64,000 nt of DNA from a virus. Shown one piece after another: positions 5,893 to 28,170 of the stretch. The DNA lies in IMG/VR virus record IMGVR_UViG_3300040959_000809; one strand, given 5' to 3'. Under the pieces are notes generated by a model, which did not search any database, was not told the origin of the DNA, and worked only from the letters and a program-made list of their open reading frames with translations. A program made the translations under genes and the position numbers. How positions within the stretch are numbered: the first letter of the stretch is position 1; the number at the start of each line of letters is the position of its first letter.

Positions 5893-5955
5893 AGTTCAAA
5901 AGTTGCACGAGCGAACTTTGTAATTAACACTCACAATTTGGAGGAATTAGATTTT

Positions 5956-6573
5956 ATGGCAAACAACTTAAAAGAACTTACCTGGGAACATCACAAATCA
6001 GCAGAACGTACTGAATTTACTCAAATTTTGCTAGGTGGTGAAATTAGCCCAGAACTTTATCACAAATATCTTTGCAGCCAATTAATTTGTTATACTGCAC
6101 TTGAAGAGGCGGTGACATTGCCAACAGAATTTCAATCTGTATTCAGACAAACTGGATTAGAGGAAGATATTGCGGAATTAGAAAGCATTTATGGTATTGA
6201 ACCATGGGATGAACCTTTACCAGCGGTAATTGAATATGTTGAGCATATAGGTTATCTTGCGAAAAATAACGACAACAATGGTCTTTTGGCTCACCTATAT
6301 GTTCGCCATTTTGGTGATATGAGCGGTGGACAAATTATCAGAACCAAGGTTCCAGGCGATGGTACATTCTATGATTTTGATGACATTGATACATTAAAAT
6401 CTGGTATTAGAGAATTGTTGAATAATGATATGGCTGTAGAAGCTGGCATTTGTTTCCAATATGCTGAGCAAATGTTTGGTGAATTGCTGGATTGCACTCC
6501 ATATTATTTTAATACTGAATATGCAATGGCGGAAGGCTTACCATATGATGTCGCTGATGGTGAAGAAGAATAG
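5956..6573 (+). CDS. hemO: heme oxygenase
   Basis: LKELTWEHHKSAE proximal His; AHLYVRHFGDMSGGQII distal helix; start at 5956 after GGAGG. Confidence 0.92.
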   Translation: MANNLKELTWEHHKSAERTEFTQILLGGEISPELYHKYLCSQLICYTALEEAVTLPTEFQSVFRQTGLEEDIAELESIYGIEPWDEPLPAVIEYVEHIGYLAKNNDNNGLLAHLYVRHFGDMSGGQIIRTKVPGDGTFYDFDDIDTLKSGIRELLNNDMAVEAGICFQYAEQMFGELLDCTPYYFNTEYAMAEGLPYDVADGEEE

Positions 6574-6576
6574 CAT

Positions 6577-7254
6577 ATGGAAATAGTAAAAAAATTAAAT
6601 AAATTTACGGCCGACACAAAGACACTTTTTTCCAATAATATGGAAAGAACTATGCCCGATTATAGAGTCGAGCAATTCCCTGGATGGTCGGATCAGTTTT
6701 GGAAAAAGCCAGGATTGATTAGAAAATGTCATTTAAAAACAATAGATCTAATTGAAGAACGAAACCTTTGGCTTCTGCATATTAATATCTTTCCAGAGTT
6801 CGGGCTTGATTTGCCTATATTAGGATGTGATGTAGTTGCAGGGCCGAATAAAATTAGCGGTTCGTTCTTTGATTTCTCACCTATTATCAAACAACACCAT
6901 CCAATGATTAAGCACTTTGCAGAACAAACTGGTGGGGTGTCTTGGAAACGAGAAAGAAAATTGCCACCGTGGGCCACAAAAATCTTTTCAAACCATATGG
7001 TCGCTGCTGGTGCGGTTCGTAATGAAGAGGTGGATCAGTTCACACAGTTGACATATTCTCTTATGGAATACTATCTCTTACAGATGGAAACTCTTGCCGA
7101 GAATACTAAATTGGATACAAAGGCGGTCCAGAATAACTATTGCAAAAATCAGAAAAAGAATCCTAAGCTACACAGTTCAATTGCTGCAATGGGGATTCCA
7201 GAGCATAAGAAAGATTATTATGTAGATCGAATTCTTTTTGAAGAAATTGGTTGA
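6577..7254 (+). CDS. pcyX: ferredoxin-dependent bilin reductase (PcyX/PcyA type)
   Basis: WLLHINIFP, LPILGCDVVAG, DFSP, R.LPPWA.KIFS, QNNYCKNQKKNP motifs; adjacent to hemO. Confidence 0.85.
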   Translation: MEIVKKLNKFTADTKTLFSNNMERTMPDYRVEQFPGWSDQFWKKPGLIRKCHLKTIDLIEERNLWLLHINIFPEFGLDLPILGCDVVAGPNKISGSFFDFSPIIKQHHPMIKHFAEQTGGVSWKRERKLPPWATKIFSNHMVAAGAVRNEEVDQFTQLTYSLMEYYLLQMETLAENTKLDTKAVQNNYCKNQKKNPKLHSSIAAMGIPEHKKDYYVDRILFEEIG

Positions 7255-12264: not shown

Positions 12265-13707
12265 ATGCCTCGTAATTTTAGAAACTATTTAAATGAAGCT
12301 TCTATATTAAAACCTGATTATGTAGAAGGGCATAAATTTGCCTGGAACGGTAAAGGTGTAAAGGAATTTGAAACCGCCGGTTATAAGCGCAATAATATAT
12401 TTACTGTAGTTACTGGTTCAGAAGGTGCTGTACTCATTGGAAGCCAAGATGCTGAGAATGAAAAATACCTACAAGGACCTGACGGAAAGGTATGGCACTT
12501 TAAAGGTGGTCTAAGTTTTAAGGCATCTTCTTTTACCCATGTTAAGGAATCTGGTGGGACACCCAGTGGCGCCGAATGGGAAAACCTTATTGTATTTGCC
12601 TATAATAATCTTAAAGGTACTGCTACAGATGAGGAAACAAAGGAAGTTGCTCTCAAATATTGGGAGCGTTATGGTAATATTTCGGATGAAATTGCTAAAA
12701 ACTTTGATACCAATCTTAAGGCAAAGCAGTTAGTACAAACAGGGCGTGGTTTGGGTAATGTCAAACTTGGAAAGTTTTGGAAAGCAGCTGGTGCGACAAA
12801 CAAGACACCAAAAACTGATATCGCATCATCTAATTTTGTGGAAAAGATTTCACTTAAAAAAGGTGGTGGATCTCAGCTCATTTCAGCAGAGAAAAAAGAA
12901 GCACTTGCAATCGTCAATGCTGCCCTATACGAAATGGGTGGTAACGCACCATTTGCCAAAAAGTTAACTAAGGCTATTGAAGATAAAATGACCAGACTTG
13001 TTACAACTGAGGCGGTCACAACCCTACAGAAACGCTCAATGATGGGTGATAAGGACGCTGGTGTGATTGATTATCAGAAAAAGGATAATGATCATAAGGA
13101 ATTGTCTGCAATGCTCAAGGAGGCCATTAGAGGGGCATCCGAAAGCAATAACTTATTCGCTCGACATATTGTACTAGAGGCAGCCACTGGTAATAATAAA
13201 TTTGGTGGTGCCAATTCAAAGGCAGCCGCAAATGTTTTAGGAAAATTTGATATTAGAACATTTGAGGTGGTTGTACAACCCATTTCATCTATTGATGATC
13301 CTATTATTATAGAGTATGCACAAAAGGTACGGCCATATGTTGCATTTAAAAAAGGTTCAGCGGGTTCTGCTGCTTATTCGGCAATGCGGATGGGTTTATC
13401 CGAAGGCTATACATTCCAAAAACTAGTCACCGAAGAACTTTCAAACATTCAAGGTTTCTATCTTACAGAGGATATTCTAAACGAAGGTCCTATGGGTATG
13501 CTTAGACGTGCTGGCACATTTGCCAAACGTGCAGGTGCCGCAGCTAAAAAAGCATTGGATGCAGCAGTTAAAAAGATCATTTTAAAATTAAAAAAGGTAT
13601 TTGCAGCCATTGCCAAAAAAGGTAAAAACATGATGGCAGCCCTTATGAAGTTCTTAGGGGTTGAGGTAAGTACTGCATCAGGAATTCCAGCAGAGGTAGG
13701 TCTATAA
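12265..13707 (+). CDS. putative capsid-packaged PD-(D/E)xK-fold nuclease-like protein
   Basis: Leader MPRNFRNYLNE; AEWE ... PKTD ... ISLKK restriction-fold-like triad. Confidence 0.6.
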   Translation: MPRNFRNYLNEASILKPDYVEGHKFAWNGKGVKEFETAGYKRNNIFTVVTGSEGAVLIGSQDAENEKYLQGPDGKVWHFKGGLSFKASSFTHVKESGGTPSGAEWENLIVFAYNNLKGTATDEETKEVALKYWERYGNISDEIAKNFDTNLKAKQLVQTGRGLGNVKLGKFWKAAGATNKTPKTDIASSNFVEKISLKKGGGSQLISAEKKEALAIVNAALYEMGGNAPFAKKLTKAIEDKMTRLVTTEAVTTLQKRSMMGDKDAGVIDYQKKDNDHKELSAMLKEAIRGASESNNLFARHIVLEAATGNNKFGGANSKAAANVLGKFDIRTFEVVVQPISSIDDPIIIEYAQKVRPYVAFKKGSAGSAAYSAMRMGLSEGYTFQKLVTEELSNIQGFYLTEDILNEGPMGMLRRAGTFAKRAGAAAKKALDAAVKKIILKLKKVFAAIAKKGKNMMAALMKFLGVEVSTASGIPAEVGL

Positions 13708-14960
13708 TGAAAAGATTTAAAAACTATATTGCAGAGGAGGTCCTTACAGAGGATAAGAATTTGCATATGACGCACCTTGAGGATGCGGTCCTTGATGGGG
13801 GTGTGGTTGGTACTCGGAATGTTATTAACTATCTTCGTGCATTGAGAGACATGTTAGGTGGCAACACCAAGGCACCAGTAAATGTCTCTGTAAAATGGGA
13901 TGGGGCACCGGCAATTTTTGCTGGGAAAGATCCATCCGATGGCAAATTCTTTATTGCCAAAAAAGGTGTTTTTAATAAGAATCCCAAAATATATAAAACA
14001 GAAGCTGAAATTGACAATGATATATCAGGTGACCTTGCGTCAAAGTTTAAGGTTGCTTTAAAAGAGTTTAGTAAGCTCGGCATTGAAGGAGTGGTACAGG
14101 GTGATTTCCTATATACGAATGATGATTTACAAACGACGGCTATTGATGGAGAATCGTATATTACTTTCCATCCTAATACGATTGTTTACGCGGTACCAAC
14201 AAAAAGCAAACTTGCAAAAACAATTTCAGGATCCTCGATCGGCGTGGTCTTCCATACAACATACCGAGGAGATTCATTTGAAACAATGTCAGCAAGTTTT
14301 GGAAAGGAGATTGTACCTTCTCTCAAAAAAGTCAAATCGGTCTGGGCGGTAGATGCAGTATTTGAAGATAAGTCGGGCAATGCCACATTTACAGCTGCAG
14401 AGACAAAAGCATTAAATTCTATTCTAACCAAGGTAGGCACACTGTTCAGAACAATTAAAAAGGAAACCCTAAACGGTCTTTCAAAGGCAAATAATGAGGA
14501 ACTTAATACACGCGTAAATGTATATGTAAATCAAAAGGTCCGAGCTGGAGAACGTATTGGAAACCCTAAACAGTTTGTGGCTGGTCTCACAAAATACATC
14601 AATGACTATTACGGCAAAGAGGCAGATAAAAAGAAAACCCAGCGCGGTAAAGACACACAGACCGCAAAGCGTGACTCGGCTCTAGCCTATTTTGCAAACA
14701 ATAATAAAAAAGAAATAGAACGCTTATTTGAAATGTATAACCTATTAGTTGATGCTAAACTTATGGTTATTTCAAAATTAAACCATGTCGATGGTCTACA
14801 AACATTTCTTAAAACCAATAAAGGTTTTGAGGTTACTGGACAGGAAGGCTTTGTCGCCATTGATCATATGGGTAAAAATTCACTTAAACTTGTAGATAGA
14901 CTACAATTTAGTAAGGCGAACTTTAGTACAGAATATATTAAAGGCTGGGAGAAAAAGTAA
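13707..14960 (+). CDS. putative capsid-packaged RNA-ligase-like nucleotidyltransferase
   Basis: Leader MKRFKNYIAE; KWDG (motif I), QGDFL (III), EGFV (IV), KLVD (V). Confidence 0.65.
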   Translation: MKRFKNYIAEEVLTEDKNLHMTHLEDAVLDGGVVGTRNVINYLRALRDMLGGNTKAPVNVSVKWDGAPAIFAGKDPSDGKFFIAKKGVFNKNPKIYKTEAEIDNDISGDLASKFKVALKEFSKLGIEGVVQGDFLYTNDDLQTTAIDGESYITFHPNTIVYAVPTKSKLAKTISGSSIGVVFHTTYRGDSFETMSASFGKEIVPSLKKVKSVWAVDAVFEDKSGNATFTAAETKALNSILTKVGTLFRTIKKETLNGLSKANNEELNTRVNVYVNQKVRAGERIGNPKQFVAGLTKYINDYYGKEADKKKTQRGKDTQTAKRDSALAYFANNNKKEIERLFEMYNLLVDAKLMVISKLNHVDGLQTFLKTNKGFEVTGQEGFVAIDHMGKNSLKLVDRLQFSKANFSTEYIKGWEKK

Positions 14961-16532: not shown

Positions 16533-17246
16533 ATGAAAAATTTAATTTATCAGTATTACAGTAGTCCAGATAAAGATCGAGTGAAAAAAGATAGGCCCGG
16601 TGTATATATAAATGCCGGTAATTATCACGAGTACTCTAAACAATCCATATCAGCATATGCCAAAAAGCATGGTGTTTTATATAAATTTATGGACCACAAA
16701 TTACCTGACGACATCCCTTTATTCTATGGTATTTTTCTACCATTTCTAGAGGGCTGGTGTTGGGATTATGATAATATTTGTTTTATTGATAGTGATATTA
16801 TGGCTACCGTAAATAGTGGAAATGTATTCGACTATGCTGGCAAACAAGGTCTTACATTACATAAAATGGATGCTTCAAAACATCGATTTGATTCCAAGCG
16901 AGCATTTAAATTCTTTAATGAAATTAACGGCTTCTTTAATAGTGGTGTAGTGATCTTTCCAAGATCCGAATATGAAAATTTCATACATTTTGCATCCACA
17001 TTAAAACAAAGAGACTTAAACAGAACCTCTGTCGAGAATAGTCTTGGCGGTTTTGATCAAGGTTTATTAAATACCTGGATAGCAAATCATAAACGCTATA
17101 ACGAATTGCCAAAGCAATATAATTATCATATGGGTAGATATCAAAAGCCCGAAAGATGGTACGATGGCGTGAGCCTAATACACTACCATCGAGAGGACAA
17201 AGCATTAATGGAACCAGAGTTTCAGGATGAGAGAATACTTAAATGA
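16533..17246 (+). CDS. GT-A fold glycosyltransferase (GT8-like)
   Basis: FIDSD DxD motif, FNSGVV, DQGLLN, YNY...IHY. Confidence 0.8.
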   Translation: MKNLIYQYYSSPDKDRVKKDRPGVYINAGNYHEYSKQSISAYAKKHGVLYKFMDHKLPDDIPLFYGIFLPFLEGWCWDYDNICFIDSDIMATVNSGNVFDYAGKQGLTLHKMDASKHRFDSKRAFKFFNEINGFFNSGVVIFPRSEYENFIHFASTLKQRDLNRTSVENSLGGFDQGLLNTWIANHKRYNELPKQYNYHMGRYQKPERWYDGVSLIHYHREDKALMEPEFQDERILK

Positions 17247-17824
17247 TGGGTGATTTAAAATTTACAACTTGTGGGGATTTTATGCAAGAGCAAGATACTT
17301 ATATTGACCAGTATAAAGAATTTTACAATAACGGCGGTTACGAAAATAATGATCCCGTGATGAGAGCAAAAGATGACATTAAAAAGATGCTAAAAAAGTT
17401 CGACTGTAAATCATTATTAGATTATGGATGTGGACATGGACTACAATATTCTCAGCACAAATTAGATCAGTATTGGGATATTAAAAAACTTACGAAATAT
17501 GATCCAGGTGTACAAGAATTTGAAATAAAGCCTACTGGGACATTTGATGCAGTCATTAATACTGATGTTTTAGAGCATATTCCTGAGGATTATGTATATG
17601 ATGTGATTGCAGACATTTTTAGTTATGCTGGTAAGTTTGTATACTTTAGTATTGCCACAGATCTGGCAAAGGCAGTATTACCGAACGGGGAAAACGCTCA
17701 TTGCACATTAAAACCACATTCTGAATGGGTTACCATTATTGATGAAATGCGTGGGGATATTCCTACATTGGTAAAATGTACTGGCCGTAATCGCTCAAAG
17801 ATAGGGAGCACGTTACTGGAATGA
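17243..17824 (+). CDS. class I SAM-dependent methyltransferase
   Basis: LLDYGCGHG, YDP, DVLEHIP, NAH. Confidence 0.85.
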   Translation: MMGDLKFTTCGDFMQEQDTYIDQYKEFYNNGGYENNDPVMRAKDDIKKMLKKFDCKSLLDYGCGHGLQYSQHKLDQYWDIKKLTKYDPGVQEFEIKPTGTFDAVINTDVLEHIPEDYVYDVIADIFSYAGKFVYFSIATDLAKAVLPNGENAHCTLKPHSEWVTIIDEMRGDIPTLVKCTGRNRSKIGSTLLE

Positions 17825-18339
17825 TTAGAAAGGTTATACTCATTGGTAATGGTCCGTCAAGTAAATTTTATTCACAATTAAATCATTTAGATGGCGGAAT
17901 GACAGCTGGGTTTAACCTTACTGAACACAATGTAGATATTATTTTTGTAAGCGATAAAAAAGTTATTAATAAACTTGAAGGCAATCCAAAGGTACATGTA
18001 TTAAAAAAGCCTTTCATGACAAAAAAAGGTGGGCTTAATCTTGCATGGAATACAGGCCATAATGCATATAACTACCTAAGAAAAATGGGTTATACTCATT
18101 TTGAAATGTATGGTTTTGATTTGCTCTTTTCAGACAATTGGAGTTCGTCGACAGATCGAGTATTTAATAAGGATCTGTGGGTTCAACAGGCGATTGAGGT
18201 TGACATTAATAACGAATGGATTCAATACTGGAATGAGATAATTGACACACCTACAATCATTCATGCTCCTGTCGGGGCAAAACTTTATGTAAACTCTAAA
18301 CATGCACAAATAGAACACCATGAAAACTTTAATTATTAG
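17821..18339 (+). CDS. GNGPS-motif protein (sialyltransferase/Maf-like fold)
   Basis: VILIGNGPSS N-terminal motif, MYGFD. Confidence 0.45.
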   Translation: MIRKVILIGNGPSSKFYSQLNHLDGGMTAGFNLTEHNVDIIFVSDKKVINKLEGNPKVHVLKKPFMTKKGGLNLAWNTGHNAYNYLRKMGYTHFEMYGFDLLFSDNWSSSTDRVFNKDLWVQQAIEVDINNEWIQYWNEIIDTPTIIHAPVGAKLYVNSKHAQIEHHENFNY

Positions 18340-18868
18340 TATGCCTAAATCAGGCACATATCTATGTAGTAATTTACTTTTAGAGTTTGGAATCAGACAA
18401 ACCTTACTACATTTAAACACAGGTACCTACCAGCAATATACATCTGATATAAACGATACCAGAAAAAATCCCCAAAAATACACACACCAGTTGAACTTTG
18501 AAAAGTCAATAGAGTTATTTGGTGATAATGAGTTTGCGGTCACCCACGTACCATATAATAAGAAAAGAGCTCAATTGCTGAAGAACACAAAGAAAATACT
18601 TTTGGTGAGAGACGAAAAGGAAATTGTAGAATCATATCAAAGATGGAATGAAAAAACTGATAGACCTATGCCAGCGTTAAATTTAGGTGATATAAAGAGA
18701 TGGGAGCAAGAAACTAATATTTTTAAGCTTTCATTTAATGATATGATAAATAAAAATGTAGAACAGATTGATAGGTTACAGAACTATCTTTTTAATAGTA
18801 TAAAGTTTGATAGTCTGATGTGTATTAAGAATGCAATTGAATTGCCATCAATGACAAAAATGAGGTAA
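18320..18868 (+). CDS. sulfotransferase-like protein
   Basis: SMPKSGTYL PAPS-binding loop, LLVRD. Confidence 0.6.
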   Translation: MKTLIISMPKSGTYLCSNLLLEFGIRQTLLHLNTGTYQQYTSDINDTRKNPQKYTHQLNFEKSIELFGDNEFAVTHVPYNKKRAQLLKNTKKILLVRDEKEIVESYQRWNEKTDRPMPALNLGDIKRWEQETNIFKLSFNDMINKNVEQIDRLQNYLFNSIKFDSLMCIKNAIELPSMTKMR

Positions 18869-18872
18869 TATT

Positions 18873-19544
18873 ATGGTAATATGTGATAAACATAATTTTA
18901 TATTTCTGAGAATTCCGAAGAATGCAAGCTCTAGTCTTGCAGATTTTTTCGTGAGAAACTTTTGTGATCAGAATGATATATGGACAGAGGTAAACGATTG
19001 TGGTATTAGAGACAATAATGTAAGCCCAGAGTTGATTAGAAAATATAGACATCAGTACAGGTTTATCCACCTAATGCTTCAGGAACTAGTGGATAATAAT
19101 GTCGTGACCCCGACTACGTTGGCTGATAAGGAAATCATAAGTGTACTTAGAAACCCACATAGGCGCCAATTATCACTTTATTTCTTTTTAAAGCGAGGAC
19201 AAAGAAAATCGCCTGAGGAATTTAGACATATTTTTAGAGATGGTTATCATGAAACGGATACTTCAAATAGGATTCTCCAAACAGATTATCCTAAATTAAA
19301 AGGTGTTGACAAAGGGACATGGTGGATATATAATAGACTTAATGAACACTTGCAAGAGTTTTGCTCCTCCAAGGGCATGACAGGAAAGTTAGAATTAAAA
19401 CAATATAAAAACGGATATACACCGAAACAACAAGAAATCTTTGAACAGTATTATGACCAAAAAACACTTGATGCTGTTAAAAAATATTATGAAAAGGATT
19501 TTGACAAACTTATGGAATTAGGAACGGGATTGGAACTAGCATGA
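18873..19544 (+). CDS. sulfotransferase family 2 protein
   Basis: FIFLRIPKNASSS, LRNPHRRQLSLY, YYEKDF. Confidence 0.75.
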   Translation: MVICDKHNFIFLRIPKNASSSLADFFVRNFCDQNDIWTEVNDCGIRDNNVSPELIRKYRHQYRFIHLMLQELVDNNVVTPTTLADKEIISVLRNPHRRQLSLYFFLKRGQRKSPEEFRHIFRDGYHETDTSNRILQTDYPKLKGVDKGTWWIYNRLNEHLQEFCSSKGMTGKLELKQYKNGYTPKQQEIFEQYYDQKTLDAVKKYYEKDFDKLMELGTGLELA

Positions 19545-20221
19545 ACGAAATACAAAAAGCTTATATTTTAAGAATTGACACCGATCTATCACGAGAGTAT
19601 GCTCAAATTACCGCTGATTCTTGTGATACAATAGGACTACCTTACGAATATCACGAGGGCTTCTATAACATGGATCCAAATGACGCCTGGAATACCATAG
19701 GCTTGAGTAGACATATCAAGCGTAATAACTGGGTTCCAGCTGCACAACTTTGTACGGCTGGTCATGCAGCTATTTGGAAAAAGATTGCAGACAATAATGA
19801 AACTGCAATTATTCTTGAGCATGATGCTGTAATGCTACACGATCCTCGGAATGTTAAAATTGGTGATAATAGAATTGTATGTCTAGGATACAAGTTAAAG
19901 GATCCAACTAGATATGACCATGAAGCCGCAGGTGGTCCTAGAGGACTTAGACAAATATCTGGCCACGAAGGTGCTCATGCTTATGCCATCTCGGCGGCTA
20001 CCGCTAGGTCGATGCTCAAGGAAATTGAGGAAAATGGTGTAAGGTCAGCGGTTGACAATCTATACTTTCTCATCCAACGTGCAAATTATACAAAGATTCC
20101 TTTGGCTATTATGGACCCAACAGCTGCAATTGGTTGGCTGCGAGACTCTACAATTTGGGAGGAACCAGCAGAAAATAATTATGCCTTTGTAGCATCATTT
20201 GAAAGAAATCTGGTAAATTAA
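19541..20221 (+). CDS. glycosyltransferase family 25-like
   Basis: CTAGHAAIW, ILEHDA, AHAYAIS.. A. Confidence 0.75.
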   Translation: MNEIQKAYILRIDTDLSREYAQITADSCDTIGLPYEYHEGFYNMDPNDAWNTIGLSRHIKRNNWVPAAQLCTAGHAAIWKKIADNNETAIILEHDAVMLHDPRNVKIGDNRIVCLGYKLKDPTRYDHEAAGGPRGLRQISGHEGAHAYAISAATARSMLKEIEENGVRSAVDNLYFLIQRANYTKIPLAIMDPTAAIGWLRDSTIWEEPAENNYAFVASFERNLVN

Positions 20222-20224
20222 ACC

Positions 20225-20884
20225 ATGTCGTTTCTGTTAAAGAATGATGTTATATCATTACACGTACCAAAGACGGGTGGTAAGGCATTTGAGCAGTGGA
20301 TTACATATGGTGCCAGGGTGGTTAAGGAACGAATTGTCAATCAACATTATTCATATTCTGAACTAATAAATGTTCACCCTGAGTATACTGATAACGACTA
20401 TATTATGATTATCAGAAATCCATATGCAAGAATTGTAAGTTGGTACCACCACAGTAGAGATGTGTATACATATAGTATTAATAGACCAGCACAAAAGGAC
20501 AAGAACCATCCACCAGAATCACCTAGGTTTAGCCCATCATTTGAAGATTGGGTACGAAAGGAGGACCTAAGAGATTTTCCAGCATTTACAAAAAACAGAA
20601 CGGCTGGATCTTTTGGAACAATGAAATCATATTTACACCCATCTGGTAGGATGCCAACATATCTATTACACCAGGAAACATTAGCAGATGATCTAAAACC
20701 ATTGAGAGAACTATGGGAAACAGACGCACCATTAACAACTGAAAATAAATCGTCTGTTTCCTTTTCAGGTAATAATAATTGGAAAAATGAGTTTAAATCG
20801 GATTATACAAAGGACTTTATATACGAATACTTCAAGGAAGACTTTGAAACCTTTGGATATGATAGAAAGTTCCCCACCGATTAA
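20225..20884 (+). CDS. sulfotransferase family 2 protein
   Basis: LHVPKTGG, IRNPYARIVSWY, FKEDFETFGY. Confidence 0.8.
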   Translation: MSFLLKNDVISLHVPKTGGKAFEQWITYGARVVKERIVNQHYSYSELINVHPEYTDNDYIMIIRNPYARIVSWYHHSRDVYTYSINRPAQKDKNHPPESPRFSPSFEDWVRKEDLRDFPAFTKNRTAGSFGTMKSYLHPSGRMPTYLLHQETLADDLKPLRELWETDAPLTTENKSSVSFSGNNNWKNEFKSDYTKDFIYEYFKEDFETFGYDRKFPTD

Positions 20885-20890
20885 GTAAGT

Positions 20891-20898
20891 TATAAATA
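20891..20898 (+). promoter_or_regulatory. T4-type late promoter
   Basis: Exact TATAAATA 35 nt before the 20933 start. Confidence 0.8.
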
Positions 20899-20932: not shown

Positions 20933-23242
20933 ATGGCCGATAAAAAGAAGAAAAAGCCCCCAGTCAAAAACTTTAAAGAATTTGACCCGGCCCAATTCAT
21001 TGAAACTGAACCAAAATTAACAGAAGCCGTTAAAAAAGACACGGTCGTTATTAGTTTCGGCAGAATGAATCCTATTACAGTAGGACATGAAAAGCTTGTT
21101 GGTAAGGTTTTAAATGTTGCTCAAAGCCAAAAGGCGGATCCTGCTATTTTTCTTTCTCACACAACTGATCCTAAAAAGAACCCTTTAACATATGAGGAAA
21201 AACTATTTTTTGCTCAAAAGGCCTTTGGCAAAGTAATTAAGAAATCACCTGCAAGGACAATTATTGAGGTGGCAAAACAACTACAGAATATGTATAAGAA
21301 TATGACTGTGGTAGTTGGTTCTGACAGAGTAAAGGAATTTGAAACCTTATTAAATAAATACAATGGAAAAGATTATAAATTTAATACTATTAATGTAGTT
21401 TCAGCTGGTGAAAGAGACCCAGACTCGGAAGGTGTTTCCGGCATGAGTGCATCCAAGATGAGATCGGCTGCTGCCGATGATGACTTTAAAAGTTTTAAAC
21501 AAGGTCTTCCTAAAAAATTACAATCAACCGCAAAAAAGATTTTTGATACAACGAGGCAAGGTATGGCATTAGATGAAGAAACTTTAGAAGAAGCAGTTCT
21601 ATCGAGAGCCGCACGACGGAAAAGAGCTCGACTCCTTAGAAGATATAAAGGTAAAATTGCTCTTGCACGCAAAAAGGCAATGCGTAGACGTGCCACATTA
21701 GACACTCTAAAGAAAAGAGCTCGGAAAACTGCACGTACTATGATCAAGGATAAATTGGCAAAGTCCAAAAGATTTGCTGATCTTGATCCTACTGCAAAAA
21801 TTGCTATTGAAAAGAGACTTGAGAAAATGCCATCGGCGCGTCTTGAAAGATTGGCTCGACGGATTCTCCCTTCAATTAAACGTAAGGAAACGGACCGTAT
21901 GCAACAAAGAAAAAAGAATGAGTCCTTAAATATTGATGAACAATTTGAAATGTTTATGGAAGAAAGAACACCGTCAGGTCGTTTTGGAAAGAATACCCAT
22001 GATATCAAGGTAAAGGTACCAGGTAGAATTAATAAAGCTATTAAAAAGGGAAGCCCGGTTTGGGACCAACGTGAGAACAAACCTCACCAGGAAACCAAGA
22101 AACACCTTTCCGATATAATGAAAAAGCATGGTGTAAAACCATCTAAGGCAAAACATTATCATAATGACATGACAGGTCATTATATGATGGCACATCCAAG
22201 TAATGATCCAGCAAAAGTTCATGCCGCGGCAACTGAATTTGAAAAAACAGTAGGTAAGGCGGTTCGTACAGAAGCCAAAGATGGTGATGGTGTCAATATC
22301 GTAAGGGACCGTGAATTTAAGGGTAAACCTATGAAGAAAGAGCCTGGTACAATAGGCATTAAATTCTCTGATATGAGAAAGTCTAAGTGGGCCAAGGACT
22401 CTGATACCAATCCAAAAAGATCCAAAGCTATGGGTGAAGCCACAGATCTTGAGGAAAAGCTAAAAGCCTCCGATGATATGGGCACTTGGATTAAGGATTT
22501 CCAGGATTCTGATGCACCACAGTTTAAAGACAAATCAAAAGAAAAGCGTAGACAAATGGCTATTGCTGCTAAATTGGATGCCGAGGATGATGTTAAAAAG
22601 GAATCGGTTCAAAAGGGAACTCATATTTCAGACGATCCAAAGGCTATGGCTAGAATAGAAAAATTCTTCAAAGGTTTGAAGCATCAGCCCAAAGGCAAAG
22701 ATATGAAAGATATGTTCGGGTTCATGATGAAACAAATGGGCTATAACCCTAAAACCGGCCTTAAAGAATATAATGAAGATGTAGATCTTGATGAAGCAGC
22801 TCATGATCCTAAACATGTAAAAATGGCTATAGGCATTGCATCTGATAAAAGATATAAAGGTGGTGACATGACTGGTGCAGTCAAGTCCATCGAAAAGATC
22901 AAAAAGGGACTATCTGATCATCCACAAGTTTCTGCTGTACTAAGAAGACAGAACGAAGAAACCAAAACGGAATCGTTGGACGAAATGTGGGGAACATATG
23001 TTTCAAAACGACCTCACATGCTATTGGATAAGAACAATAAGGTTAAATTTGACAAGCGCTTTAAAATGTTTAAAAAGCAAAATGAACTTGAAGAAGAATT
23101 TACACTTAATGAAGAAATGGATTTGGTAAATGATCTTGAGAATTCAGTAAATGAGTTTGTAGAATCTAATGAATTCAAGGAAGCAACTGAACCAAAACTT
23201 TCGTTTAAGGATATCCAAAAAAGAATGGGAAAGGCAAAGTAA
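20933..23242 (+). CDS. putative polyprotein: HxGH nucleotidyltransferase (cytidylyltransferase/NadD-like) plus about 7 small basic modules
   Basis: FGRMNPITVGH and MSASKMR motifs; acidic linkers LDEETLEE, NIDE..FMEE, DLEE, DVDLDE, SLDE. Confidence 0.75.
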   Translation: MADKKKKKPPVKNFKEFDPAQFIETEPKLTEAVKKDTVVISFGRMNPITVGHEKLVGKVLNVAQSQKADPAIFLSHTTDPKKNPLTYEEKLFFAQKAFGKVIKKSPARTIIEVAKQLQNMYKNMTVVVGSDRVKEFETLLNKYNGKDYKFNTINVVSAGERDPDSEGVSGMSASKMRSAAADDDFKSFKQGLPKKLQSTAKKIFDTTRQGMALDEETLEEAVLSRAARRKRARLLRRYKGKIALARKKAMRRRATLDTLKKRARKTARTMIKDKLAKSKRFADLDPTAKIAIEKRLEKMPSARLERLARRILPSIKRKETDRMQQRKKNESLNIDEQFEMFMEERTPSGRFGKNTHDIKVKVPGRINKAIKKGSPVWDQRENKPHQETKKHLSDIMKKHGVKPSKAKHYHNDMTGHYMMAHPSNDPAKVHAAATEFEKTVGKAVRTEAKDGDGVNIVRDREFKGKPMKKEPGTIGIKFSDMRKSKWAKDSDTNPKRSKAMGEATDLEEKLKASDDMGTWIKDFQDSDAPQFKDKSKEKRRQMAIAAKLDAEDDVKKESVQKGTHISDDPKAMARIEKFFKGLKHQPKGKDMKDMFGFMMKQMGYNPKTGLKEYNEDVDLDEAAHDPKHVKMAIGIASDKRYKGGDMTGAVKSIEKIKKGLSDHPQVSAVLRRQNEETKTESLDEMWGTYVSKRPHMLLDKNNKVKFDKRFKMFKKQNELEEEFTLNEEMDLVNDLENSVNEFVESNEFKEATEPKLSFKDIQKRMGKAK

Positions 23243-23736
23243 TGAATAGCTTTAAAGATCATCTTGCAGAAAAGAAAAATGCAGAAGATCCGGATATCGG
23301 AGACCGAAAAGGATCACAACCTTCCGAATATCATAAAGGAATTAAGTCTGTTTCCACCAAGGTCGCTCGTGATCAACACTTTAAAAAGTATGCCAAAAAA
23401 GGTGAAGATGGCGAGGCGGACAGTCAAGCAAATTATAAACCTGCACCAGGTGACGCCACTGCTACAACAAAACCTTCAAAGCACACAAAACGCTATAAGG
23501 CTATGTTTGGAGAAGATGCAACAGAAGGCTTAAAGAAAAAGGCCGAGAAAAGCGGTATGCCTCTTGGAGTACTTAGGCAGGTTTACAACCGTGGTGTTGC
23601 TGCATGGAAATCTGGTCATCGCCCTGGCACTACTCCTCAGCAATGGGGCTTTGCAAGAGTTAATAGCTTTGTGACCAAATCAAAAGGGACTTGGGGCAAG
23701 GCAGATAAGGATTTAGCAGCCAAGGTGGGGGGCTAA
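23242..23736 (+). CDS. CTS-leader protein with HRPG..PQQW..ARVNSF domain (DUF5824-like)
   Basis: Leader MNSFKDHLAE; C-terminal VYNRGVAAWKSGHRPGTTPQQWGFARVNSF. Confidence 0.65.
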   Translation: MNSFKDHLAEKKNAEDPDIGDRKGSQPSEYHKGIKSVSTKVARDQHFKKYAKKGEDGEADSQANYKPAPGDATATTKPSKHTKRYKAMFGEDATEGLKKKAEKSGMPLGVLRQVYNRGVAAWKSGHRPGTTPQQWGFARVNSFVTKSKGTWGKADKDLAAKVGG

Positions 23737-23738
23737 AA

Positions 23739-24371
23739 ATGCAAAACTTTAAATCGTTTATTTCTGAAGCCGGTGGTGCTGGTGAGTGGGGAGCAAAGAA
23801 ACTCACAAAGAAATATAAAAAAGACACCCCAGGCGAATCCTCTGATTTAAATGAAAGCGCATTAAAAGCACTTAGGGTTGCGACCAAAGCTCATGCAGGA
23901 CAAACACGTAAAAGTGGTGGCAAGTATATTGAGCACCCAAAAGAGGTTGCTCGATTTGTAAAGCAATTTAAAAAGTCAAATAATCTTTCGGCGTTAGTAC
24001 AGGCAGCCTATCTACACGATACTATTGAAGATACTGATACAACATATGATGATTTGGTTAAACAGTTTGGTGCTCTTGTAGCTGATATGGTTCAGGAATT
24101 AACAACTGATAAAGCTGCCTCTGATGCTATTGGTAAAGGTGAATACATCGCTGGTAAGATGGCTAAAATGTCAAGTTGGTCATTAGTTATTAAACTTGCG
24201 GATAGATTAGCAAATGTACAAGACATTGATACTCGGCCTGCAGATTTCCAAAAGAAATATGCTGCACAGACTGCACTTGCCATTAAACGTCTCCGTAGTG
24301 ATAGGTTCTTGAGCAAAACACATAATAAAATCATCTCGGCAATTGAGAAAAAGATTAAAGAGTATGTTTAA
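23739..24371 (+). CDS. CTS-leader HD hydrolase, SpoT/Mesh1 type
   Basis: Leader MQNFKSFISE; AHAGQTRKSG..YIEHP, AAYLHDTIEDT, V.ELT.DK, IKLADRLAN. Confidence 0.88.
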   Translation: MQNFKSFISEAGGAGEWGAKKLTKKYKKDTPGESSDLNESALKALRVATKAHAGQTRKSGGKYIEHPKEVARFVKQFKKSNNLSALVQAAYLHDTIEDTDTTYDDLVKQFGALVADMVQELTTDKAASDAIGKGEYIAGKMAKMSSWSLVIKLADRLANVQDIDTRPADFQKKYAAQTALAIKRLRSDRFLSKTHNKIISAIEKKIKEYV

Positions 24372-26391: not shown

Positions 26392-28170
26392 ATGGCTTTT
26401 ACAGACAGAATTAAACAGTTAATGTCGTCTCATCTCGAGGCGGAACTAATGGAAGGTCTGAAACACGACCGTTATATGCGTGCTCACGGTAAAAAAGCTA
26501 AAGGCACCGCAACATGGATGTTTACCACCAAAAAAGATGGTGAAGTAAACTACGATAACGATAAGGAAGTTTTCCAATCCGGTCCATCTATGAAACTTGC
26601 AGATGCTGCCAAAAAAGCAATGGATGCTCTTAAATCAAAAACAATTTATGTAATGGAAGCTAAATTAGATCCAGTTGGCAAAGAAGATGATGATGTGGAC
26701 AATGACGGTGATGTAGATAAATCCGATAAGTATCTTAAAAAGCGCCGGGCCGCAATCAAAAAGGCTATTAATACAAAACCAGCAATGAAAGAGGCAGCTA
26801 AAAAGCAAAAAGCAAAACTACTGCCCGTCAAAGGTTCTGTAGATGATGCAAATGATGTGGCACAAAAGGCAACTGGCGAATCTGTTAATGAAGCGGCAAC
26901 ACCTCAAATGATGAAAGCCGCAAAAGAACTTGAAATGTACGCAAAGAAACACGGTGGGATTGATAAAACAGACTTTATGAAAGCCTCAAAGATGTTGGCA
27001 TCCGGTAAAGCCGGAACAAACCTTGTTAAATTTGTAGACGGACTTGACACAGATCCTCGTGAAAAGGTTATTACAGTTATGGGAACCCACATGGGTAATA
27101 AAACTGTTGGAAAAATGTTTGGTGTTAACATCCGTGAAGAAGTAGAATTAGACGAAGATCGTAGAACGGAACTTAGTCATCAATCAATGATGTTTACTCA
27201 TGCAATGAAACAAGCTGAATTTAAAAAGAAAGATCCGAGACTCGCAAAACAGCATGATATGGCTGGCAAGTTGCATGCTAAAGCGGCAGATATGCACGCT
27301 GATAACCATCCAGATGCAAAAAAGCATTCAGATAAAGCAAATAAAGCATCAAAGCTATTAGGCGAAGAAGTAGAACTTGATGAAACTTTATCACCATCTG
27401 AAAAGAAACTTGTCAATCAAATGTATGATAAGAAAGGTAACCTGACACCACTTGGTAAAAAGGTTATGAACCACGGTAAAAAGCCTGGTGATAACATCCG
27501 TGAGGAAACTGAACAGCTTGATGAATCAACTCAAATGATGGAAAATCTAGCTGATGCGATTGATAATACAGATTTGGCTAAACTCACAGTAGAAGAGTTA
27601 TCTGAAATCGAAGAAGGTATTATTAAGGCGCTAGGTGTTGCCGCCAAAAAGACTGTAGGTGGTGTCGCTAAGGGTGTAGGTGCTGTCGCTAAGGGTGTTG
27701 GTAAGGCAGCTAAATCCGCAGTCATTAATAAACAAGGTAATATCCGTGGTACACAAGCGGCTAAAACTGACGCACAGACTAACAAGGCTAATAAAATTGC
27801 TGATAAATTGCAACGAAATAAAGATGCGGCCGATAGATTAAAAGCGGCTCAGGACAGAATTAAATCTCTTTCCTCTAAGCCTAAGAAACCATTAGCGGCA
27901 AGTTATAATGAGGACCTAAACGAAATCGGAAGTAACTTTGAAACAAAACCGAATGAAAAGAAACTTGCTGACCTAGGCCGTAAAATGATGGATATGGGTC
28001 AAAAGGAAAAGAATGATACTCTTTCAAATGCATATGCCAGACTTGGTGACGCGTTGACAAGATATGGTACCACATTTGGTGCCAGAAATATAAAAGATTT
28101 GGAAAAGAAAACTGGCATGAAACAAGCCATTATTATGGATCTTATGAAAAGAGCTGCGAAGCATAAGTAA
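26392..28170 (+). CDS. putative polyprotein of about 9 modules separated by prohead-protease-type linkers
   Basis: Linkers ELME, YVME, SVNE, NIREEVELDE, GEEVELDE, NIREETEQLDE, EIEE, DLNE. Confidence 0.75.
   Translation: MAFTDRIKQLMSSHLEAELMEGLKHDRYMRAHGKKAKGTATWMFTTKKDGEVNYDNDKEVFQSGPSMKLADAAKKAMDALKSKTIYVMEAKLDPVGKEDDDVDNDGDVDKSDKYLKKRRAAIKKAINTKPAMKEAAKKQKAKLLPVKGSVDDANDVAQKATGESVNEAATPQMMKAAKELEMYAKKHGGIDKTDFMKASKMLASGKAGTNLVKFVDGLDTDPREKVITVMGTHMGNKTVGKMFGVNIREEVELDEDRRTELSHQSMMFTHAMKQAEFKKKDPRLAKQHDMAGKLHAKAADMHADNHPDAKKHSDKANKASKLLGEEVELDETLSPSEKKLVNQMYDKKGNLTPLGKKVMNHGKKPGDNIREETEQLDESTQMMENLADAIDNTDLAKLTVEELSEIEEGIIKALGVAAKKTVGGVAKGVGAVAKGVGKAAKSAVINKQGNIRGTQAAKTDAQTNKANKIADKLQRNKDAADRLKAAQDRIKSLSSKPKKPLAASYNEDLNEIGSNFETKPNEKKLADLGRKMMDMGQKEKNDTLSNAYARLGDALTRYGTTFGARNIKDLEKKTGMKQAIIMDLMKRAAKHK

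Follow-up and report, generated by a model that had tools for sequence, protein, structure and literature searches.

A putative protease-jointed capsid-cargo polyprotein carrying a HIGH-superfamily nucleotidyltransferase in viral DNA of T4-like cyanomyovirus type

A 64,000-nucleotide stretch of viral DNA (IMG/VR record IMGVR_UViG_3300040959_000809; the whole stretch is hereafter called the window) contains on its + strand an open reading frame (ORF) at 20933-23242, with the stop codon at 23240-23242, which encodes a 769-residue product (P0001). Probably (we estimate the probability at about 0.6), this ORF codes for a capsid-cargo polyprotein, which is packaged into the phage head, contains protease-sensitive joints between its units and carries a nucleotidyltransferase (NTase) of the HIGH superfamily. 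The observations underlying this interpretation are the identity of the enzyme domain, the modular anatomy of the chain, the exchange of cassettes at the joints, the enrichment of a protease motif in these joints and the cluster of leader-tagged genes, in which the ORF is located.

Modular organization of the ORF product

Lysine makes up 16% of the ORF product, and its 15-residue charge profile ranges from +8 to -6, with basic blocks alternating with acidic stretches. The profile thus reproduces the alternation of Lys/Arg-rich blocks and acidic linkers described in the first-pass annotation of this DNA, and both enzyme motifs and all eight linkers quoted there were located in the translation (positions are given below). 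The AlphaFold model, built on 106 sequences, contains confident domains, with the predicted local distance difference test (pLDDT) score falling below 50 at joints 217-221, 447-505, 614-644, 677-691 and 720-725. The ends of BLAST high-scoring segment pairs from 219 homologues cluster at the proposed joints as well. The tripeptide [LI]xE occurs 11 times in the ORF product against 5.8 ± 2.3 expected, and 7-8 of the 11 occurrences lie at joints. Since the alignment ends, the pLDDT dips and the tripeptide count coincide with the joints, the modular organization of the ORF exceeds chance.

The enzyme domain, preceded by an N-terminal leader, is followed by about eight modules, namely an Arg/Lys-rich helical domain and six or seven small cassettes. 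Joint 1 (LDEETLEE, residues 213-220; 21569-21592, + strand, as all the features of the ORF) includes E215 and E220, both retained by 90% or more of the family members. The helical domain (residues 221-330; 21593-21922) has pLDDT 82-95, lies within the match to phrog_3041 and belongs to the conserved core of the subfamily. Joint 2 (SLNIDEQFEMFMEE, residues 331-344; 21923-21964) contains an internal leader-like element, F338-E-M-F341-M-E-E344. It is followed by the seldom conserved module X1 (residues 345-448; 21965-22276), which ends in the non-canonical joint VRTE (residues 445-448), and by module X2 (residues 449-502; 22277-22438). Module A (residues 503-557; 22439-22603) extends from the joint ATDLEE (residues 503-508) to the joint VKKE (residues 554-557), and module B (residues 558-612; 22604-22768) leads to the joint YNEDVDLDE (residues 612-620; 22766-22792), the DNA of which resembles that of other joints, including one in another ORF of the window starting at 26392. 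Module C (residues 621-684; 22793-22984), the most widespread of the modules, ends at the joint TESLDE (residues 679-684), and module D (residues 685-727, MWGTYVSKRPHML...; 22985-23113) ends at the joints LEE and LNE, the linker FTLNEE occupying residues 723-728. The chain is terminated by an acidic C-terminal tail (residues 728-769; 23114-23239), which is replaced by another tail in the homologue P0003.

Protease recognition motif at the joints

The prohead protease of phage T4, gp21, cuts after Glu in the sequence L/I-X-E and requires few determinants beyond that (PMC9026906). This motif is concentrated at the borders of the modules. Within 10 residues upstream of unique flanks it was found for 62% of module C copies, 76% of module D copies and 90% of the C-terminal domains of the DUF5824 family, a frequent partner of the enzyme in homologues, as compared with 11% of all sequence windows and 33% of equally acidic ones. 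Short inter-module segments contained 87 occurrences against 27.2 obtained with within-segment shuffling, i.e., an approximately three-fold excess (z 12.4), and the motif was depleted inside module A (0 vs 6.2 expected) and inside DUF5824 (0 vs about 6). The logo of 188 unique joints is acidic at P7-P4, carries Leu (74%) or Ile (26%) at P3 and Glu at P1, and is continued by Ala, Lys, Ser or Gly at P1'. Upstream of the enzyme, a near-invariant P-x-[LI]-x-E-A is situated 4-8 residues ahead of the first strand across the family, the first canonical site in the ORF under study being L29-T-E31/A32.

Leader-like elements, [FY]..[FYH][ILVM].E, were also found inside the chains, with 94 occurrences against 8.9 expected (ten-fold). 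Fifty of them stand at the end of the core, where the ORF has its own element FEMFMEE (residues 338-344). Because such elements are enriched internally and over half of them are located just after the core, the sequences suggest that the joints are internalised leaders remaining from gene fusion.

Exchange of modules among homologues

More than 7,400 database proteins of about 450 to 1,180 amino acids match the ORF, and its C-terminal 435 residues are matched by 1,089 proteins, most of them over only 11-41% of that region. Hidden Markov models for six units (four modules, the core and the DUF5824 C-terminal domain) were run on 220 proteins and revealed 18 architectures, of which core-D-DUF5824 was the commonest. 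Module A was present in 120 instances, modules A and C appeared in both orders, and 91 proteins contained modules without the enzyme. Thus, the module sets of homologues differ, are reordered and include modules standing alone, so that the earlier proposal of separable units, which would have been contradicted by modules never occurring separately or reshuffled in relatives, holds in this respect.

The exchange was also traced among close relatives. Alleles with flanks at least 90% identical differ by whole cassettes, and all the breakpoints are at joints. The presence of module B varies between close alleles, and module X2 is absent in P0002 and is substituted by an unrelated cassette of about 50 residues in P0008 and in the phage contig G001:C88, these alleles being otherwise near-identical to the ORF. 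Module C occurs in 980 representative clusters, in host proteins of 92-956 residues, where it occupies any position and is usually 70-87% identical to the query copy; single genes were also found, in which a canonical leader is joined immediately to this module. Separation at a joint is evident for DUF5824 too: fused to the enzyme in most homologues, in the window it is encoded by a separate downstream ORF with its own leader, MNSFKDHLAE (23242-23736, +; 164 aa, P0221), which overlaps the stop of the enzyme gene. In the C-terminal ~70 residues of DUF5824, 16 positions are invariant (…RG.AAW..GHRPGT.P.QW…). The helical model of this family (pLDDT 66) resembles sigma region 2 only weakly, its best structural matches reaching Z of about 5, which is below the meaningful level for helical bundles.

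A BLAST search of the remaining ORFs of the window detected no further copies of the modules. A second ORF built as a train of modules is located at 26392-28170 (+), preceded by its own TATAAATA motif (26345). At the DNA level, the EEVELDE joints of this second train resemble the EDVDLDE joint of the ORF 20933-23242 (repeat families D1 and D17). Two homologues, P0021 and P0118, contain in the same chain an added kinase of the Zeta-toxin/AAA_33 type and an ART-PolyVal ADP-ribosyltransferase, which links them to the kinases reported in cyanophage virions. The product of SynMITS9220M01_157 (L002, 6045-6851) starts directly with module A (…DFYKSDAPQFKGRSKEKRREMAIAAKL…), its gene overlapping the preceding ORF by 13 nt; because it has no leader of its own, it may represent a split or frameshifted train. 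The short phage contig C88 (L004/L005) mentioned above, which bears a 98%-identical allele of the phage gene, was binned with G001, a 98%-complete bacterial metagenome-assembled genome, probably either by misassignment of a phage fragment or because the sample included an infection.

Leader sequences, late promoter and gene neighbourhood

The ORF product begins with a Lys-rich leader predicted to be disordered (residues 1-31; 20933-21025), which contains NFKEF (corresponding to leader positions 4 and 7) and ends with L29-T-E31/A32. According to mutational work on the capsid targeting sequence of T4 IPIII, positions 4 and 7 serve for targeting and positions 8 and 10 for processing. The same positions 4, 7, 8 and 10 are conserved in the leaders of the window: seven ORFs of its + strand, starting at 13707, 23242, 23739, 24364, 24744, 25432 and 25713, begin with M..[FY][KRQ].[YFH][ILV].E, as compared with 0.02 expected, and six of them directly follow the enzyme gene. 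Moreover, the enzymes of cultured relatives open with leaders of this kind, i.e., MKNFFQFLSE in SynMITS9220M01_155, MKKFSEIIE in Melnitz_18 and MKNIKDILE in DLP_6. An alternative start, which would provide the ORF with a canonical leader, was looked for at V11 and discarded, as this codon is GTC and not a start codon.

A T4-type late-promoter motif, TATAAATA, is located at 20891-20898 (+), 42 nt upstream of the start codon; the window contains 11 copies of this motif, 10 of them on the + strand. By its gene content (gp59, gp32, UvsX, gp41, NrdAB, ThyX, RNase H and PhoH), the window belongs to the T4-like cyanomyovirus type. Adjoining genes at 5938-7254 (+) encode a heme oxygenase and a ferredoxin-dependent bilin reductase; these typical cyanophage auxiliary genes point to a cyanobacterial host.

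Among the leader-tagged neighbours, the ORF 23739-24371 (+) encodes an HD_4 protein matching small alarmone hydrolases of the MESH1/SpoT type (E 1.6e-16 to 3nr1) and is a candidate for a capsid-delivered hydrolase of (p)ppGpp or a related compound. The product of the ORF 13707-14960 (+) starts with a canonical leader and belongs to DUF6267 (E 5e-108); no credible match to it was found among PDB sequences. In PHROG 455, DUF6267 is fused N-terminally to the NTase family, and in DLP_6, Melnitz and cyanophages its gene precedes that of the enzyme. ORFs of about 200 codons, some of them sulfotransferase-like (PF03567; phrog_3347), occupy the region 16533-20884 (+) between the DUF6267/'virion structural protein' genes and the enzyme gene.

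Nucleotidyltransferase domain

Residues 32-215 (21026-21577) form a HIGH-superfamily nucleotidyltransferase domain recognized by PHROG, AlphaFold and Foldseek. The NadD/CoaD-like domain previously placed at 21026-21570 (residues 32-213) agrees with the confident AlphaFold domain, which is Rossmann-like and has pLDDT 85-96. The ORF matches phrog_3041 ('cytidyltransferase'; E 4e-70, residues 13-332) and phrog_395 (E 4e-46, residues 31-218). Its score with the generic CTP_transf_like family PF01467 is 18.7 bits, below the cut-off of 21, and since the homologue P0021 reaches 24.5 bits, the NTase of the ORF belongs by its sequence to a divergent HIGH subfamily. The (H/T)xGH motif after beta1 is represented by T49-V-G-H52 within FGRMNPITVGH (residues 42-52), and the second nucleotide-binding motif, of the ISxTxxR type, by G170-MSASKMR177 (MSASKMR, residues 171-177), the latter being kept in the homologues from DLP_6, cyanophages and Melnitz. 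At least 90% of the 106 aligned sequences share Gly43, Asn46 and His52. By tblastn, the domain was found in 568 cultured phage records, mostly of T4-like cyanophages, in which it is annotated as 'cytitidyltransferase'; a megablast comparison of the surrounding 6 kb with cultured phages gave no match, and a literature search with this annotation term returned no papers. A single-sequence search against PDB yielded only a marginal match to MJ0951, and the sole hit of the whole-family profile against PDB sequences, a methane clathrate binding protein, was dismissed as a low-complexity artefact. Judging from its sequence, the domain is the 'cytitidyltransferase' of T4-like cyanophages, an intact, active-looking adenylyl/cytidylyl-transferase of the HIGH superfamily, whose acceptor substrate is not readable from the sequence. 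The first-pass annotation had said the same of the substrate, and this is borne out by Foldseek, which placed phosphopantetheine adenylyltransferase (PPAT/CoaD), NadD and archaeal or human nicotinamide mononucleotide adenylyltransferase (NMNAT) at about equal distances (probability 1.0, TM-score 0.55-0.67, identity 13-20%).

The same annotation had also proposed that the enzyme, an NMN or NaMN adenylyltransferase injected into the host, rebuilds NAD+ against NAD-depleting defences such as SIR2 and Thoeris. We find this function doubtful. The fold indeed resembles NadD and NMNAT, JGI automatic names of homologues read 'nicotinic acid mononucleotide adenylyltransferase', and similar speculation exists in the literature. 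Nevertheless, the fold match to PPAT is equal or slightly better; no NCBIfam family, and hence no equivalog, was matched at E <= 0.01 by the enzyme (nor by DUF5824 and the neighbours 12265 and 15207), the Pfam match being generic and below the cut-off; and the 64-kb window showed neither Nampt nor any other salvage partner. Published phage NAD+ reconstitution pathways pair an adenylyltransferase with Nampt or use ADP-ribose pyrophosphate (ADPR-PP) chemistry. An adenylyltransferase by itself is not known to regenerate NAD+ from ADP-ribose and nicotinamide, the products left by NADases. The proposal is thus reduced to a resemblance of folds, which PPAT shares.

Packaging and processing of the polyprotein

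In two independent cyanophages, liquid chromatography-mass spectrometry of virions has detected the enzyme, accompanied in S-CREM2 by adjacent hypothetical proteins and in S-SZBM1 by the upstream neighbour. A prohead protease of the Peptidase_S77 family (PF03420) was found in two of five related viral contigs carrying the enzyme family (approximately 40-55% complete); none was seen in the short phage contig of G001. Several facts weigh against a packaged and cleaved polyprotein, and they concern both packaging and cleavage. As to packaging, the enzyme was identified in the published virion analyses from few peptides, and the authors of these analyses caution about contamination. The 'CTS-like leader' (capsid targeting sequence) of the first-pass annotation proved to be one in part: targeting positions 4 and 7 are kept, but the F-K-E-F stretch is not N-terminal, beginning at residue 14 (F14 and F17) after MADKKKKKPPVK, and processing positions 8 and 10 are missing. 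The window-wide count of TATAAATA is not significant (11 vs 6.5 expected), and the late-promoter argument therefore rests on the position of the motif. As to cleavage, the joints VRTE and VKKE have no Leu or Ile at P3, no depletion of [LI]xE was found inside the NTase domain or module C, and selection for acidic helical linkers with Leu could have causes unrelated to cleavage. The DNA coding for the joints is imperfectly repeated (70-86% identity over 21-29 nt), and for this reason the joints could also, or instead, act as recombination seams. Finally, the contigs in which the prohead protease was found are those of relatives and not of the window's own genome.

The points on packaging bear on a cytoplasmic alternative, according to which the protein is not virion cargo but a cytoplasmic enzyme made late, whose tail is disordered and evolves fast, the detection in the virions of relatives being due to carry-over. 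Such an enzyme would be consistent with the location of the gene among replication and nucleotide-metabolism genes, with the warnings of contamination in the proteomic papers and with the non-canonical N-terminus of the ORF. It would leave unaccounted for, however, that the gene is preceded by a late-promoter motif and followed in its operon by six ORFs with canonical leaders, that its counterparts in cultured phages bear the canonical leader themselves, that the enzyme and its neighbours were detected in virions of two independent phages, and that the joints are enriched in a motif with no obvious cytoplasmic purpose. Considering these facts, we regard a purely cytoplasmic role as very improbable.

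The points on cleavage bear on a second alternative, a packaged multidomain 'polyvalent' virion protein, trimmed at the N-terminus and otherwise uncut, in which the joints serve solely as flexible linkers and as seams tolerant of recombination. Known polyvalent proteins comprise 2-15 domains, and some of them, such as the virion RNA polymerase of N4, are packaged unprocessed (PMC5512222), and ART-PolyVal and Zeta-kinase domains do occur in homologues of the ORF. The two non-canonical joints would be of no consequence for such a protein, and the imperfect repeats could provide microhomology for recombination. What it leaves unexplained is the combination of Leu/Ile at P3 and Glu at P1, three-fold over composition-matched shuffles of the linkers, the resemblance of joints to internalised processing leaders, the existence of the same module as a leader-tagged single gene and the tolerance of fission at a joint, upon which the downstream piece gains a new leader. 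Besides, gp21 reportedly requires little beyond L/I-X-E (PMC9026906). An uncut chain is therefore an unlikely, if less improbable, alternative to the cleaved cargo polyprotein.

Proposed mechanism and its implications

From the organization described above we infer the packaging of the ORF product, its cleavage and ejection, and the role of each module. The gene would be expressed late, giving a precursor, which consists of the Lys-rich leader ending in L-T-E/A, the enzyme, the helical domain and six or seven cassettes, with a disordered acidic joint bearing L/I-x-E, the target of T4-type prohead proteases, between each unit and the next. The precursor would enter the prohead core together with its leader-tagged neighbours (DUF5824, the MESH1-like hydrolase, DUF6267 and others), where those joints that are accessible would then be cleaved by a gp21-type protease. 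As internal proteins, the enzyme and the small basic modules would presumably remain associated with the DNA and be transferred into the host upon infection.

T4-like marine phages are among the most abundant viruses in the sea. We consider the chances about evenly balanced that these phages use such cassettes to fill their capsids with enzymes and small proteins in varying combinations, the ORF being one array of this kind: leader-tagged genes would have been fused, the old leaders would have become protease joints, the joints would double as in-frame recombination seams, and strains would exchange individual modules of the cargo that they inject. The enzyme family and the 'polyvalent proteins' have been described before, as have the capsid targeting sequence of T4 and processing by gp21. 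The literature searched contained no description of independently occurring cargo cassettes chained by prohead-protease motifs in marine T4-like phages, and the search for capsid-targeting leaders in cyanophages returned a T4 review only.

If the joints are cut, one gene would deliver the enzyme and half a dozen small proteins together with the DNA, i.e., before phage gene expression, and closely related strains would differ in the exact cargo delivered. This would explain the recurrence of the cytidylyltransferase and its neighbours in cyanophage virion proteomes, would extend the paradigm of T4 capsid targeting and gp21 processing to ocean phages and would open a large, easily recognised pool of candidate injected effectors, module C alone accounting for about 980 sequence clusters. 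It also predicts neo-termini after the joint Glu residues.

Comparison with known cargo systems

As an enzyme, the NTase of the ORF shares with PPAT (CoaD), NadD and NMNAT the Rossmann fold, the (T/H)xGH motif and the ISxTxxR-like motif, differing from them in the low identity (13-20%), in the absence of an equivalog model match and in its position within a phage cargo chain. The enzymes of PHROG 3041/395 from cyanophages (S-CREM2 ORF154, S-SZBM1_140, SynMITS9220M01_155) are much closer, with 43-50% identity to the ORF over the NTase domain and the same neighbourhood with DUF6267 upstream. Unlike these relatives, the allele of the window has its own set of modules, and its DUF5824 is split off as a leader-tagged ORF. 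Published annotations treat the cyanophage cytidylyltransferase as an auxiliary metabolic gene of cell-wall or NAD metabolism and describe neither the leader nor the joints nor the train of modules.

As putative cargo, the ORF product can be compared with the internal proteins of T4. IPI, IPII, IPIII and Alt, which are processed by gp21 and ejected together with the DNA, have a 10-residue N-terminal leader, whose positions 4, 7, 8 and 10 match the leaders of the window neighbours and of the relatives' enzymes, and the L/I-x-E cutting motif is common to T4 and the ORF joints. Alt exemplifies an enzyme as cargo, trimmed at both ends, and the small basic proteins of T4 are diverse and fast-changing, like the ORF modules. 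In contrast to T4, where each cargo protein has one gene and one leader, several units are concatenated in the ORF, with joints resembling internalised leaders. Alt, furthermore, is an ADP-ribosyltransferase, whereas the ORF contains a HIGH nucleotidyltransferase and an atypical Lys-rich leader.

Iyer et al. (2017, PMC5512222) surveyed virion-associated polyvalent proteins from phages and conjugative elements, which resemble the ORF product in being long mosaic chains of unrelated domains. In the cases in which their processing is proposed, it is ascribed to built-in metallopeptidase domains and not to a prohead protease acting at regular L/I-x-E joints, and the survey mentions neither cyanophages nor HIGH-type NTases. 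The ORF itself has no hallmark polyvalent domain, ART-PolyVal and the Zeta-type kinase being confined to the homologues P0021 and P0118. In the giant phages phiKZ, 201phi2-1 and SPN3US, a gp21-related protease cleaves head proteins after Glu in a three-residue motif, frequently at more than one site, and many of these proteins are ejected, which comes close to the processing proposed here; their motif is S/A-x-E as opposed to L/I-x-E, and these proteins are not described as shuffled, independently occurring cassettes of the kind that compose the ORF product.

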